DNA of 64,000 nt from a phage (GCA_014816185.1 GCA_014816185.1_4095.1); one strand, 5' to 3'. Numbered from the stretch's first letter, positions 59,342 to 63,829 are shown. Notes: generated from the letters alone by a model not told the origin. A program made the numbers and translations.

Positions 59342-59400
59342 TTGCACCGTACTGATAAAAGCGTATAATGTTTTACATCGAGAGCGGGAACACTTCCCGC
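59342..59400 (+). promoter_or_regulatory. promoter plus 5' leader hairpin cassette
   Basis: TTGCAC - 16 nt - TATAAT then GCGGGAA-CAC-TTCCCGC hairpin. Confidence 0.55.
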
Positions 59401-59424
59401 TACACATTAAGAGAGATTAAAACG

Positions 59425-59787
59425 ATGGCGACTCAAATCAATAAAATCATGCTTAACCTGGTAAACTTCCGCGAAGAGATGAAAGGTCTTCCGGCTGAAA
59501 CTGTAAAAATTCACATTGCAGCTTATCGGGAACTTATTGCAATGTTGCCGCTTAAGCGTGAACAATACGCCGCTACTTTGATGCTTGATTCAATGATCCA
59601 TGTAATGATCTCAAATGATTTAACGATGGTTTATCAGTACATGGGAGAAAATTTCGCGGTGTGTAGTAAGCCAGTACCAGGGATGGCAACTACTGAGGAA
59701 TTGCACGGTTTAAATTTAAAGCAAGATGCATGGGATAATATGCCTCGTTTCCTGGTATGGGCTGACAGTGGCAAAATTTACAAATAA
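59425..59787 (+). CDS. hypothetical protein
   Basis: Track start at 59368 lies in the -10; moved to MATQINK after AGAGAG. Confidence 0.55.
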   Translation: MATQINKIMLNLVNFREEMKGLPAETVKIHIAAYRELIAMLPLKREQYAATLMLDSMIHVMISNDLTMVYQYMGENFAVCSKPVPGMATTEELHGLNLKQDAWDNMPRFLVWADSGKIYK

Positions 59788-59801
59788 GTTTAATAAAGTA
59801 C

Positions 59802-59860
59802 TTGCATACTAAGTTAAAACAAGTATAATACTTTCTATCAGGTGGGGAATAGTTCCCCAC
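59802..59860 (+). promoter_or_regulatory. promoter plus 5' leader hairpin cassette
   Basis: TTGCAT - 16 nt - TATAAT then GTGGGGAA-TAG-TTCCCCAC hairpin. Confidence 0.55.
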
Positions 59861-59879
59861 TATATAAGAGGATTAAAAA

Positions 59880-60119
59880 ATGGCTAAATCAAAAATGTTC
59901 TTAGGTCACAAAAACAAAACTCATTGGAATGTAAGCCTGTGGATTAATAACGATGAGGGATTGTATCGGTTGGCCCTGGATTTTATTAACGACAACACTA
60001 ATCGCAATGATGCGGCCCGTCATATGATGTTATTTTTAGAACAGACTGGACAAGATAAAACACCGGACGGATTCAAATATAGCACTACTGCGATCCGTGC
60101 GGCGATGGTTGGAATGTAA
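59880..60119 (+). CDS. hypothetical 79-aa protein, paralog of 61918 ORF
   Basis: GHKNKTHWNVSLWINN...TPDGFKYSTTAIRAAMVGM shared with the 61918 gene. Confidence 0.6.
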   Translation: MAKSKMFLGHKNKTHWNVSLWINNDEGLYRLALDFINDNTNRNDAARHMMLFLEQTGQDKTPDGFKYSTTAIRAAMVGM

Positions 60120-60204
60120 TAGAATTTATTTAAAGTACTATCATTTTTTGCGATAGTACTTTATAATAGTGTTTTATTCATACACCAACGATAAGGGTAA
60201 CAGC

Positions 60205-60471
60205 ATGAATATTAAGTATTTTGCGACGCGTGAACAAGCTCGGATCGCCGCACGCCAGGACGGGGCAACGTTTAAAGATATGGGCGTACAATCGGAACGT
60301 GGTAAACGTTGGGCCATTGTAAAGCGTAGTACCGCCAGATCATTACAGTACTGGTTAGCGGCCTTAAAAAGACCCGATAGTGTATCGCGACGAGTGGTAG
60401 AAATAAAGCTCGACCGAAAGGGCAACCGCGTGACCGTGTACCGTACTAAAAAGATTGCAGTACTTGAATAA
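60205..60471 (+). CDS. hypothetical basic protein
   Basis: Start moved to MNIKYFATREQ after AAGGG. Confidence 0.5.
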   Translation: MNIKYFATREQARIAARQDGATFKDMGVQSERGKRWAIVKRSTARSLQYWLAALKRPDSVSRRVVEIKLDRKGNRVTVYRTKKIAVLE

Positions 60472-60478
60472 AAAGTAC

Positions 60479-60537
60479 TTGCAAACTATGTTTAATGGCG
60501 TATAATGTTTTACATCGAGAGCGGGAACACTTCCCGC
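60479..60537 (+). promoter_or_regulatory. promoter plus 5' leader hairpin cassette
   Basis: AAAGTACTTGCAA - 16 nt - TATAAT then GCGGGAA-CAC-TTCCCGC. Confidence 0.6.
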
Positions 60538-60558
60538 CTATAACCTGGAGTAATAAAA

Positions 60559-60789
60559 ATGACTAATATGTATATGACTGAAGTTAAAACCGTAAAAGAT
60601 ACTACCACTAATAAAACTACTTACTTACAGCGGATCTGTGGTGTATGGCAACGTATCAGCAAATCAAAGTACTTTAAATTAACATCATATGCCAATCGTT
60701 CGGATTCATTCAGTACTGAAATAAAAGGTAATAAAGTACACCAATACGGCACTTATTATTATTATAGCCTGGACGCGATTGCAGTATAA
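60559..60789 (+). CDS. hypothetical protein
   Basis: SD GGAG. Confidence 0.55.
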   Translation: MTNMYMTEVKTVKDTTTNKTTYLQRICGVWQRISKSKYFKLTSYANRSDSFSTEIKGNKVHQYGTYYYYSLDAIAV

Positions 60790-60927
60790 GCAGTTTACAA
60801 ATCTTTACAATTGCCGGTATTGACTTATTTTGTCAGTACTGGCATAATGTATTCATTGGCAGATAAGCCGTAGCCCATAGGGTGCGGGAGTGTATCTATA
60901 GAAAAAGTAGTTTATTACAGTTACAAT

Positions 60928-61030
60928 TGTGCACCCGGTGGGTTAGCTGTTGTCATGGGGTATATTATGCCAGTACTGGATAGTGCTGTCAATACCTTTT
61001 TACTATTCAGTACTGAAAACTATTTGATAA
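60928..61030. repeat. intergenic repeat TGCACCCGGTGGG...CAGTACTGG, copy 2
   Basis: Second copy, extended through CCAGTACTGGAT...GTCAA. Confidence 0.5.
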
Positions 61031-61037
61031 AAAGTAC

Positions 61038-61106
61038 TTGCAAACTATGTTTAAAGGCGTATAATGTTTTACATCAGGACGGGGAACGAAATAAGTAACT
61101 TCCCGT
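61038..61106 (+). promoter_or_regulatory. promoter plus 5' leader hairpin cassette
   Basis: AAAGTACTTGCAA - 16 nt - TATAAT then imperfect GGGGAA...TTCCCG hairpin; a second TTGACA-N16-TATAAT promoter lies at 61156-61183. Confidence 0.5.
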
Positions 61107-61215
61107 TAAGTAGCCCAGGAGTAAGGCACACGAAAAACTCCCCTGATAAAATAGTTTGACAAATGTTTTTAAAAGCGTATAATACTTACATCAACTACTG
61201 AATGAGGGTTACAAA

Positions 61216-62157: not shown

Positions 62158-62214
62158 TATTCAGTACTGAGATAATGGCGGGTAATAGTTCCCGCCTTTA
62201 CTGAGGGTTATCTA

Positions 62215-62502
62215 ATGAGTAAAGTAATAAAGTACAATGTGTTAAGCAAATCATTGTCTATCAGTGAATGCACCGATGGTTTTTGGCTATTTGATGAAAC
62301 GCGTGGAATGAATTTAGCTATGCGTGAGAAAACGGCTGAGGCCGCATATGTTGAGGCACTGGAATACTACCAGGAACGTTTAAAGGAAGTAGAAGAAGAT
62401 TATAAAAGCCTCAAAGCGAAAGTAGATCATTTCGTCGGTCAATTAGTGGAAGACAACGACGAGGACGGGCACTACTGCGACCGTTGCGGATCTTACAGTT
62501 AA
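62215..62502 (+). CDS. hypothetical protein
   Basis: SD GAGGG; C-terminal CDRCGSYS. Confidence 0.55.
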   Translation: MSKVIKYNVLSKSLSISECTDGFWLFDETRGMNLAMREKTAEAAYVEALEYYQERLKEVEEDYKSLKAKVDHFVGQLVEDNDEDGHYCDRCGSYS

Positions 62503-62519
62503 GTACTAAGGATTATATA

Positions 62520-62732
62520 ATGAGTGATTTAATTGAACGTATCAAAGAGCTTGAAGAAAAAGAATTGCAGTTGATCGGGTTACGGAATAAAGTATTCCAT
62601 GATTTAGGTGGCTTTATTAATGCCTGGGATAGTGGCGATCCTGATGCGTTACCTGCTAACCGCCAGGCGATGATCAATGATGTGCGTGGTGTCTTTGAGT
62701 ATGTTTTAAAAGTACTAGACACTAAGCAATAA
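62520..62732 (+). CDS. hypothetical protein
   Basis: Start moved to MSDLIERIKELEEK after AAGGA. Confidence 0.5.
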   Translation: MSDLIERIKELEEKELQLIGLRNKVFHDLGGFINAWDSGDPDALPANRQAMINDVRGVFEYVLKVLDTKQ

Positions 62733-62793
62733 AGGCGTATAATACTTTATATTGGTACTGACAAACATTATAAGCGATTCAGGAGCTTTAATC

Positions 62794-62979
62794 ATGACAA
62801 CATTATCTGAGGTTATCCGCGAGCAAGCTGCAAAGGCTGGAATGACTGTTATCAATGTAGGGATCAAGATTGAGATCTCCCCTAACGAGTTGCAAGGGAT
62901 TCCCGATCCTACTAGCTGGGATCGTGCTGGGCGAATGATGCGTAATGCTTCATTACTGGACGGTACAAAATTTAATTAA
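62794..62979 (+). CDS. hypothetical protein
   Basis: Start moved to MTTLSEV after CAGGAG. Confidence 0.5.
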   Translation: MTTLSEVIREQAAKAGMTVINVGIKIEISPNELQGIPDPTSWDRAGRMMRNASLLDGTKFN

Positions 62980-62985
62980 AAGTAC

Positions 62986-63044
62986 TTGCAATTAGTTTTC
63001 AGTACTGTATAATGGTTTACATCAAAGGGAGAAATGGTTCTCCC
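62986..63044 (+). promoter_or_regulatory. promoter plus 5' leader hairpin cassette
   Basis: TTGCAA - 16 nt ending in CAGTACTG - TATAAT then GGGAGAA-ATGG-TTCTCCC. Confidence 0.6.
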
Positions 63045-63063
63045 TGGTAATGAGGAAAATACA

Positions 63064-63285
63064 ATGGCTAATATCACTACTCTTTCCCAACTGGAAGCAC
63101 TGGTTAAATCTATGCGGGAACATGCCGACAAAATCGGCGTACAAGATCCAGCCGTTTGCTTCTGCGACGAATTGAATGATGATACACTGGTAATAGCAGA
63201 AGTCCAGGACGTTTCTAACTATTCCTCGCGTTACACTGGCGGCGTAGCAAATAAAGGCGACTTCTGTTTATACCTTACAAAATAA
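63064..63285 (+). CDS. hypothetical protein
   Basis: Start moved to MANITTLSQ after GAGGA. Confidence 0.55.
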   Translation: MANITTLSQLEALVKSMREHADKIGVQDPAVCFCDELNDDTLVIAEVQDVSNYSSRYTGGVANKGDFCLYLTK

Positions 63286-63347
63286 CAACGCGGGGAGATA
63301 ATAACTCCCCGTTACTTTTTCAGTACTGAATCATTTAATAGACGGAT

Positions 63348-63440
63348 ATATGCACCCGGTGGGTTAGTGACTGTTTCGTCTTGATGTAGTAATTATGCCA
63401 GTACTGGATGCAGTTGTCAACAATTATTTTTCAAATACTT
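63348..63440. repeat. intergenic repeat TGCACCCGGTGGG...CAGTACTGG, copy 3
   Basis: Third copy. Confidence 0.5.
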
Positions 63441-63453
63441 TTTATTAAAATAC

Positions 63454-63506
63454 TTGCAATTAGTTTTTAAACGCGTATAATGTTTTGCATAGGGGAGCGG
63501 TTCCCC
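63454..63506 (+). promoter_or_regulatory. promoter plus 5' leader hairpin cassette
   Basis: TTGCAA - 16 nt - TATAAT then GGGGA-GCGGT-TCCCC. Confidence 0.6.
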
Positions 63507-63527
63507 TGGTAACTAAGGAATAAGAAA

Positions 63528-63764
63528 ATGCTCGAACAAATCAAATCAACGTCTGCGAATGTAACGGGAACGGTATCACACTTTACTAGTGATGAATCGC
63601 GTGGTGTTCCTTATTGTGCTGTACATGTAAACACTGAGGGTAACTACTGGTTTACGGTTTACGGATCATATTCATTTGGTCGGCCTGGACATCAAAAAAT
63701 CCTGGATAAAGTACAGCCAACGGGTAAAAATATCACTGCTGAAATGTTTTATAAAAAATCATAA
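63528..63764 (+). CDS. hypothetical protein
   Basis: SD AAGGAA. Confidence 0.6.
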   Translation: MLEQIKSTSANVTGTVSHFTSDESRGVPYCAVHVNTEGNYWFTVYGSYSFGRPGHQKILDKVQPTGKNITAEMFYKKS

Positions 63765-63768
63765 AGTA

Positions 63769-63829
63769 CTTGATAATAGTTTTTAGTACTGTATAATATT
63801 TTACATCGCAAGGGGGAGCGGTTCCCCTG
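63769..63829 (+). promoter_or_regulatory. promoter plus 5' leader hairpin cassette
   Basis: TTGATA - 17 nt ending in TAGTACTG - TATAAT then GGGGGA-GCGGT-TCCCC. Confidence 0.55.

Follow-up and report, generated by a model that had tools for sequence, protein, structure and literature searches.

Why should a run of small phage genes be preceded, one after another, by the same promoter and then by a hairpin whose sequence changes from copy to copy while its pairing is kept? The question is raised by positions 59342-63829 of a 64,000-nucleotide (nt) stretch of phage DNA (GCA_014816185.1), which at its full length we call the window. Each unit, or cassette, consists of a promoter, a leader hairpin near the predicted 5' end of the transcript, a Shine–Dalgarno (SD) sequence and an ATG. 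The region 59300-63900 is 97.3% identical over its full length to Escherichia phage SP27, and 86-94% identical across most of its extent to PBECO4 and many other coliphages of ~350 kb (genus Asteriusvirus). The array is best explained as the reiterated early-gene expression unit of a jumbo phage of the PBECO4/121Q/SP27 type. We show here that the hairpin structure is under purifying selection as sense-strand RNA, and we weigh what it might do.

Promoter copies and their leaders

A search of the window for AAAGTACTTGCAA-N16-TATAAT with no more than two mismatches returned exactly eight matches, all on the plus strand between 59335 and 63797 (Table 1), against a chance expectation of 0.01 from dinucleotide shuffles. 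An independent repeat search recovered a 44-nt family of ten copies that reaches into the hairpin and the ATG. The eight copies have the make-up of a sigma-70 (RpoD-type) promoter, with a TTGCAA-like -35 box, TATAAT and a spacer of 16 nt in every one of them, rather than the 16-17 nt given in the initial annotation of this locus. Conservation continues downstream of the -10 box as TATAAT-N6-YAT, an initial transcribed motif, which therefore likely places the transcription start at the A of YAT, 8 nt past the -10 hexamer; the start remains a prediction from sequence.

In seven of the eight copies a compact hairpin comes next, then an SD sequence and an ATG. The initial annotation had counted at least eight genes with the complete unit, but the copy at 61031 has an imperfect, long-loop stem and ~75 nt without an open reading frame (ORF), followed by a hairpin-less promoter at 61156-61183. 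Stems in the window are of 7-9 base pairs (bp; G-U pairs counted), enclose loops of 3-5 nt and begin 10-14 nt after TATAAT, in place of the earlier figures of 5-8 bp and about 10 nt. The placing of the hairpin at the 5' end of the transcript was a reasonable claim, to the extent that the predicted start is right. Further promoters lack a hairpin, two or three in all, at 61156, at 62716 and, in degenerate form, near 60132. The ORFs that follow the cassettes belong to real phage protein families, two of them being DUF7249 paralogues, and PHROGs and Pfam scans of the cassette genes returned nothing beyond families of unknown function.

When the eight window leaders were folded, the hairpin was the only stable element and the SD sequence and AUG were unpaired in the centroid. 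Each leader forms a single hairpin of -10 to -16 kcal/mol, set apart from the ribosome-binding site, and mean SD accessibility is 0.72. Across all units, including those from the related phages described below, stems measure 6-10 bp. They set in 1-8 nt downstream of the predicted start (3 or 5 nt in most cases) and end 17-23 nt upstream of the AUG, roughly where the 30S footprint has its 5' edge. Purines make up 91% of the 5' arm, which is purine-rich in 82 of 85 units, and the 3' arm is pyrimidine-rich; the base of the stem is rich in G, and AA/UU closing pairs are conserved.

Three familiar identities for such a hairpin were considered and rejected. It is not an intrinsic terminator or attenuator, as none of 78 cassette hairpins has five or more T in the 8 nt past the stem; the only hairpin of this sequence type that bears a T-run is the one at 63290, behind a gene end. 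An RNase III processing site of the T7 early type would have ~20 bp or more of double-stranded RNA, and the stems have only 6-10 bp. Nor is it a lambda-type nut site, given that its loops are variable (UAG, CAC, AUGG, ACAUC and others) and no conserved box flanks it.

The array is not confined to the window: in SP27 it runs ~20 kb further than the window end. We scanned IMG/VR with a promoter-only pattern, which returned many jumbo-phage contigs, including 121Q, RaK2 and GAP32, and gathered 129 unique promoter units blind to hairpins. The predicted leader (+1 to +38) reached -12 kcal/mol or lower in 45% of these units, compared with 5% of dinucleotide shuffles, and where the promoter pattern occurs by chance, in unrelated contigs, no comparable leader structure was seen. 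The leaders are bimodal, having either a hairpin and 46-57 nt between the -10 box and the ATG, or a short unstructured sequence of 29-45 nt; some 20-25 early genes per genome have the hairpin. In the early region of SP27, 20 of 34 gene starts with a promoter have a hairpin before them, compared with 3 of the 19 that have no promoter (Fisher p = 0.0035), and it is therefore tied to 5' ends and not to ribosome-binding sites in general. We also observed the same -10 and YAT layout without a hairpin in an unrelated 88-kb phage contig from IMG/VR (L102), where the leaders are CA-rich and unstructured (ACCCCACATAGCAACACGACA...AAGAGGGC).

The promoter part of the cassette is of a kind already known for this phage group. 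Relatives use host RNA polymerase together with a phage-encoded sigma factor, and their RpoD-like promoters with an UP-like element are grouped among short hypothetical ORFs that the authors suspected to be early genes (PMC5259590, PMC11895373, PMC7318152). The likeness extends to the early promoters of the RaK2-like jumbo phages CBB, GAP32 and PA5oct: an A-rich element lies upstream of TTGACA-like and TATAAT boxes, which are concentrated among short hypothetical, suspected early ORFs (PMC5259590), and in PA5oct TTGAC/TATAATA motifs lie at RNA-seq start sites (PMC7318152). Unlike our description, these papers concern the promoter only, and mention no leader hairpin, initial transcribed motif or AGTACT element. 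Judging from the literature on relatives, the window's promoters would be transcribed early by the host RNA polymerase holoenzyme. The leader hairpin itself is absent from Rfam and from the literature searched: an Rfam search of 57000-64000 at E ≤1, which covers the cassettes and the minus-strand RNAs there, gave zero matches, and papers on PBECO4, phAPEC6, Asteriusvirus, Sharanji, fEgEco12, RaK2 and PA5oct do not describe it.

A further element accompanies these promoters. AGTACT (often CAGTACTG) is by a wide margin the most over-represented hexamer of the window, its 248 copies being ~11-fold the number (~22) that base composition predicts. The hexamer is found in coding and intergenic sequence, is densest between 52000 and 64000, and reaches 4-7 copies per kb in related jumbo-phage contigs. 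Of 30 SP27 early promoters, 25 have AGTAC(T) either directly against the -35 box or in the spacer beside the -10 box, compared with a background of 0.18. A literature search for the motif CAGTACTG returned primer sequences only, and nothing on AGTACT.

Purifying selection on pairing in the sense-strand RNA

That the stems differ while their pairing is kept had been taken in the initial annotation as a sign of selection on structure, and this was borne out. Among the 78 hairpin-bearing units, which come from jumbo-phage contigs that include SP27, 121Q and RaK2, 38 distinct arm pairs were counted. RaK2 (L006) has the identical architecture with the unrelated stems GGGGATACA/TGTATCCCT and GGAGATTCCA/TGGAATCTCC, and other stems unlike those of the window include GGTAAGCA/TGCTTATC, GGGTAAGC/GCTTACCC, GATTAGGG/CCTTAATC and GACAGGAGA/TCTCTTGTC. 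Over the 38 arm pairs, canonical pairing of an arm with its own partner is 98%, compared with 76% (maximum 86.5%) when 3' arms are permuted, that is, exchanged among hairpins of equal length. Pairwise comparison of the arms gave 1729 two-sided differences, 1669 of them with both pairs canonical, and 509 one-sided differences.

The covariation analysis that the initial annotation had called for gave a concordant result. In a covariance-model alignment of 112 matches, 97.4% of paired cells were canonical against 87.0% after shuffling, with none of 500 shuffles as high; seven of the eight pairs changed on both sides, and the covariation score was 0.338, compared with 0.162 for shuffled alignments and at most 0.14 in slid controls. 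Model and alignment were made from unedited sequences. Because the sequences were aligned by fitting them to the model, and antisense matches to the same palindromes are among them, these counts lean towards structure. As checks on this bias we therefore added the permutation test above and an orthologue test that used MAFFT only. For this, the cassettes that lie upstream of a single orthologous gene (MKF.EL...) were taken from six distant contigs and aligned with MAFFT alone; RNAalifold predicted the hairpin as the sole structure, and three of its eight pairs were compensatory. A whole-cassette MAFFT alignment, in which variable tail and loop lengths put the arms out of structural register, was excluded from the counts, and an alignment of sequences edited by hand to even out their geometry was discarded altogether.

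An inverted repeat just past the start is in the typical position of an operator, and could act in DNA: it might form a cruciform, or a dimeric repressor might bind it as a palindromic site at about +5 to +25. A GGGRA...TYCCC core does recur in many copies. The mismatches within the repeats, which were logged irrespective of type, bear directly on this. G·T mismatches outnumber A·C by 24 to 3 over all units and by 13 to 3 among unique arms (binomial p = 0.02), a bias that is not expected from recognition of double-stranded DNA. G·T is tolerable only where the sense strand folds, which speaks for the transcript and against duplex DNA. Loops range from 3 to 7 nt overall, with 3, 4 and 5 nt about equally common in one genome, and the half-sites vary too; a DNA-binding dimer would thus face half-sites spaced 3-7 nt apart within one genome, which differ from copy to copy and yet are complementary to their own partners. 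We consider a role in DNA very unlikely. The same strand asymmetry, which indicates RNA, sets the hairpin apart from the promoters of the N4 virion RNA polymerase. These are likewise short hairpins near phage early promoters, but they are DNA elements upstream of the start and are read by that polymerase, whereas the cassette hairpin lies downstream of a sigma-70 start.

Could the hairpin instead be a functionless passenger, carried along as duplication and recombination spread the promoter cassette? The cassettes are indeed paralogous and are sometimes swapped between orthologues (the hairpins of the MSNKVN gene differ between contigs L003 and L101), gene duplicates bring their cassettes along, and a few decayed copies exist. 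However, pairing is kept over 38 divergent arm pairs and into other genera, the mismatches are biased to G·U, and decayed copies are rare beside intact hairpins or cleanly hairpin-less leaders. We give this explanation a very slim chance. One such duplication is visible in the window, where 59790-59974 and 61828-62012, the DUF7249 genes with their promoter-hairpin units, are 76% identical in DNA; their stems differ (GGTGGGGAA/TTCCCCACT and GGCGGGGA/TCCCCGCT) and the pairing is intact in both.

Possible roles of the leader hairpin

We favour, tentatively and with somewhat less than even confidence, a role in cis, in which the hairpin would be a leader module that protects and insulates the early mRNAs. 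Host RNA polymerase would use a near-consensus sigma-70 promoter, with AGTAC(T) abutting the -35 or -10 box, and would initiate at the A of the conserved YAT. The purine-rich, SD-like first part of the transcript would then be folded into a helix near the 5' end, which could slow 5'-end-dependent decay. With an A/U-rich linker, the SD sequence and the AUG following the stem, the true ribosome-binding site would stay open whatever lies upstream. The purine-first polarity may derive from a requirement for a purine-rich initial transcribed region in the escape of polymerase from very strong promoters, such as T7 A1 and T5 N25.

The leader of T7 gene 10 (phi10) has a comparable layout: its stem (GGGAGACC...GGUUUCCC) is G-rich and purine-first, and is followed by a linker rich in A and U, a strong SD sequence and the AUG. 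We confirmed the sequence in the T7 genome; its predicted fold is an 8-bp hairpin, GGGAGACC/GGUUUCCC, running from +1 with the SD region separate. That stem-loop reportedly stabilises the mRNA, a finding attributed to Mertens et al. in 1996. The T7 stem, however, lies exactly at +1, where GGGAGA is imposed by T7 RNA polymerase, whereas the cassette has a sigma-70-type promoter and a predicted tail of 3-7 nt, recurs before ~20-25 genes per genome and shares no sequence homology with the T7 leader. The ompA and papA mRNAs of E. coli, which are said to be protected with no more than ~2-4 unpaired 5' nt, as against a predicted 5-7 nt in about half of the cassettes, likewise combine a stem-loop near the 5' end with a well-translated ribosome-binding site and expose little single-stranded leader. 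The cassette hairpin is best filed with this class of 5' leader stem-loops, in which it is notable for its reiteration and its covariation across genera. References for the ompA and papA stem-loops are given in a review (PMC3997798).

Several points weigh against a protective module. The unpaired tail, counted from the predicted A of YAT, is 3 nt in ~28 of 78 units and 5-7 nt in ~41 of 78 (when binned, 1-4 nt in ~38 units and 5-8 nt in ~42). Classic 5'-terminal protection reportedly requires a tail of at most ~2-4 nt, as Emory and Belasco are said to have found in 1992; about half of the copies, with their predicted 5-7 nt, exceed this limit, to the detriment of the stabiliser idea. The phage literature named above yielded no start-site data for this genus. 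Taken individually, the window leaders are only modestly more stable than their dinucleotide shuffles (z from -0.3 to -3.7), and many early promoters in the same genomes work without a hairpin. Strict purine-first polarity is superfluous for a purely thermodynamic cap, and together with the conserved AA/UU closing pairs it hints at something more specific than a generic one. Finally, a simple stem-loop is little hindrance to RNase E, which readily bypasses it when scanning from the 5' end (PMC9943677). We had considered an obstacle to RNase E scanning as a rescue for the long-tailed copies, and dropped it on these grounds.

The features that exceed the needs of a generic hairpin, that is, the purine 5' arm, the G-rich stem base and the AA/UU closing pairs, would be accommodated by an RNA operator or tag for a trans-acting phage or host factor, for example a translational repressor that closes the early genes jointly, or a factor that spares tagged mRNAs from degradation by shutoff or defence. 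The ~20-25 hairpin-bearing genes of each genome would form a natural regulon, and the stem ends at the edge of the ribosome footprint. Against the idea, neither loops nor stems are constant within one genome: loop length (3, 4 or 5 nt) and loop sequence differ, as do the stems, which are moreover unrelated in RaK2 and other relatives. Hairpin-less early promoters are also interspersed with hairpin-bearing ones, and no protein emerged as a candidate binder. Lambda nut boxB, another short hairpin near a phage early promoter, differs in having a fixed 5-bp stem and a GNRA-like pentaloop beside boxA. On balance we think an operator of this kind unlikely. Its more specific form, in which the purine-first hairpin is a class tag of these early mRNAs that a phage or host factor reads, we consider somewhat less likely still. 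If true, early mRNAs would be exempted from an RNA-degrading shutoff or defence, or silenced jointly at the early-to-middle switch, and the tag would be an RNA regulon element peculiar to jumbo phages of the RaK2/PBECO4 type.

The tie to promoters raises a third idea, that the nascent hairpin acts on transcription, by reducing backtracking or promoter-proximal pausing once polymerase has left a near-consensus promoter, or by conferring resistance to termination in the manner of HK022 put RNA. The distance from the -10 box is fixed within 10-14 nt, conservation extends to the initial transcribed sequence, which agrees in its first 8 nt (ATCGAGAG) with the transcript of T7 A1, another RNA that folds close to its 5' end, and the cassettes follow one another with almost no terminators between them. 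This scarcity cuts both ways, since with so few terminators there is little to antiterminate. Moreover, the hairpin can form only when polymerase is near +35 to +40, past promoter escape, the put RNAs are two-stem structures of ~70 nt, and many equally strong promoters have no hairpin. An effect on transcription therefore seems to us quite improbable.

The likeness to T7 A1 (sequence checked at V01146 462-543) may be noted separately. T7 A1 is likewise an early promoter of host polymerase with a purine-rich transcript that folds close to its 5' end and starts AUCGAGAG, and the predicted transcripts of cassettes 1 and 3 (59377-59393 and 60514-60530) start with the same 8 nt. In contrast to the cassettes it is a lone promoter, its RNA structure is larger and of another kind, and that fold has no assigned function of this sort. 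The likeness may reflect convergence on a good initial transcribed sequence.

The leader might also be a translational switch, in which cleavage removes the 5' arm and the anti-SD-like 3' arm (UUCUCCCC) then pairs with the SD sequence and silences the gene. The 3' arms are CU-rich and the SD sequences GA-rich, and some match perfectly (for example TTCTCC with GGAGAA). However, mean SD accessibility, 0.72 in the full leader, falls to 0.61 without the 5' arm and to 0.54 in a control with the 3' arm reversed. The native 3' arm thus hides the SD less than the control does and is not tuned for sequestration, and we rejected the switch as extremely unlikely. The protective and insulating leader module is the reading that we retain, at the strength given above.

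Neighbouring elements and wider meaning

The coordinates of the units and of the elements among them are collected in Table 1.

Table 1. Promoters, leader hairpins and associated features in the window
Feature	Position	Strand	Details
Unit outside the array	30205..30262	+	TTGACA-16-(cAGTACTg)TATAAT, hairpin GGGGATGA-acttc-TCATCCCT, SD, ATG; leader minimum free energy (MFE) -16.2 kcal/mol, z -3.7
Promoter 1	59335..59369	+	AAAGTAC + TTGCAC, 16-nt spacer, TATAAT; predicted start A 59377
Leader hairpin 1	59383..59401	+	AGCGGGAA-cac-TTCCCGCT; SD ~59409-59415
Cassette 1 gene	59425-59787	+	ATG 59425; leader MFE -12.6 kcal/mol, SD and AUG unpaired
Promoter 2	59795..59829	+	TTGCAT-16-TATAAT; predicted start 59837
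Leader hairpin 2	59841..59861	+	GGTGGGGAA-tag-TTCCCCACT; ATG 59880, gene 59880-60119 (DUF7249)
Promoter 3	60472..60506	+	TTGCAA-16-TATAAT; predicted start 60514
Leader hairpin 3	60521..60537	+	GCGGGAA-cac-TTCCCGC; ATG 60559, gene 60559-60789
Promoter 4	61031-61065	+	followed by ~75-nt structured, predicted non-coding transcript without ORF, to 61147; not a gene cassette
Hairpin-less promoter	61156..61183	+	TTGACA-16-TATAAT, short leader, gene 61216-61827
Promoter 5	61833..61867	+	TTGCAA-16-TATAAT; predicted start 61875
Leader hairpin 5	61880..61900	+	GGCGGGGA-gtggt-TCCCCGCT; ATG 61918, gene 61918-62157 (DUF7249 paralogue)
Relic hairpin	62177..62196	+	GGCGGG-taatagtt-CCCGCC directly after GATAAT box, truncated promoter; gene 62215-62502
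Hairpin-less promoter	62709..62743	+	AAAGTAC + TAGACA-16-TATAAT; gene 62794-62979
Promoter 7	62979..63013	+	TTGCAA-16-TATAAT, AGTACT also in spacer; predicted start 63021
Leader hairpin 7	63026..63045	+	AGGGAGAA-atgg-TTCTCCCT; 42 bits (covariance model); ATG 63064, gene 63064-63285
Intrinsic terminator (bidirectional)	63290..63320	+	GCGGGGAG-ataataa-CTCCCCGT + T-run, after gene end
Promoter 8	63447..63481	+	AAAATAC + TTGCAA-16-TATAAT; predicted start 63489
Leader hairpin 8	63490..63508	+	(T)AGGGGA-gcggt-TCCCCT(G); ATG 63528, gene 63528-63764
Promoter 9	63763..63797	+	AAAGTAC + TTGATA-16-TATAAT; predicted start 63805
Leader hairpin 9	63811..63828	+	AGGGGGA-gcgg-TTCCCCT; ATG 63849, gene continues past window end

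Two of these units deserve comment. The orthologue in 121Q (L029) of the relic unit at 62177 has a complete promoter and initial transcribed sequence. The transcript predicted from 61031-61150 (AUCAGGACGGGGAAC...UAAGUAG..AGUAAG..ACGAAAAACUCCCCUGAU, ~75 nt, no ORF) recurs in two or three copies per genome and is kept in SP27 (two copies, L001 ~17140-17260 and 9610-9720) and in 121Q L029; its fold is weakly better than shuffles (z -1.5), and it is a candidate small RNA. The cassettes also bear on start-codon annotation. The SP27 coding sequence that corresponds to window 63034-63285 (SP27 L001 8167-8418) has as its annotated start an ATG in the hairpin loop of the leader (MVLPGNEENTMANIT...), and the SD-preceded ATG at 63064 is more likely the true start.

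Strong minus-strand promoters oppose the plus-strand cassettes at 63420, 60992, 59065 and 58725 (TTGACA-17-CATAAT with a TG extension). They would be predicted to yield short antisense RNAs (58697-59065, 60820-60992 and 63290-63420) with conserved blocks, TAGGGTGCGGGAGTGTATC at 58945 and 60878, and GCACCCGGTGGG at 58783, ~60935 and 63352; for the RNA from 63420, termination is predicted at 63291-63311, in the bidirectional terminator. Shortly before the cassette array begins, 58439-58598 holds repeats with a period of 8 bp (TGGATGGC / TAGACGGC / TAAACGGC ...), in a ~2-kb stretch without an annotated SP27 coding sequence, and looks like an array of iterons or of protein-binding sites.

Further away, the minus strand of 38353-51293 contains ~12 terminators of the form GCCAGTAC-N3-GTACTGGC with a T-run, most ~1.2 kb apart and all with one sequence, ttgtattaaatatagtataatg, after them. 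The pattern is suggestive of a row of paralogous genes on the minus strand, most of ~1.2 kb, with the GTAC motif reused in the terminators. Elsewhere a terminator lies within a promoter, aaaGGGTTGACttcgGTCAGCCCttttt(gc)TATAAT, with -10 boxes at 21650, 24893, 25075, 27503, 31998, 33280 and 34694; in these units a UUCG-loop hairpin is followed by a T-run, and its 5' arm holds the -35 box of the next promoter, TTGACT.

Jumbo phages of the PBECO4/121Q/RaK2 type have hundreds of genes of unknown function. For them an early expression cassette is now defined to single nucleotides, with a leader RNA structure that covaries over several genera. It can serve to correct start-codon calls, such as that of the SP27 coding sequence annotated from a hairpin-loop ATG, to flag small ORFs that are probably immediate-early, and as a source of compact promoter-plus-leader parts for expression in E. 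coli. More generally, it is another phage case in which a strong host-type promoter is coupled to a 5' leader helix, and it offers dozens of natural variants with which to test such helices.

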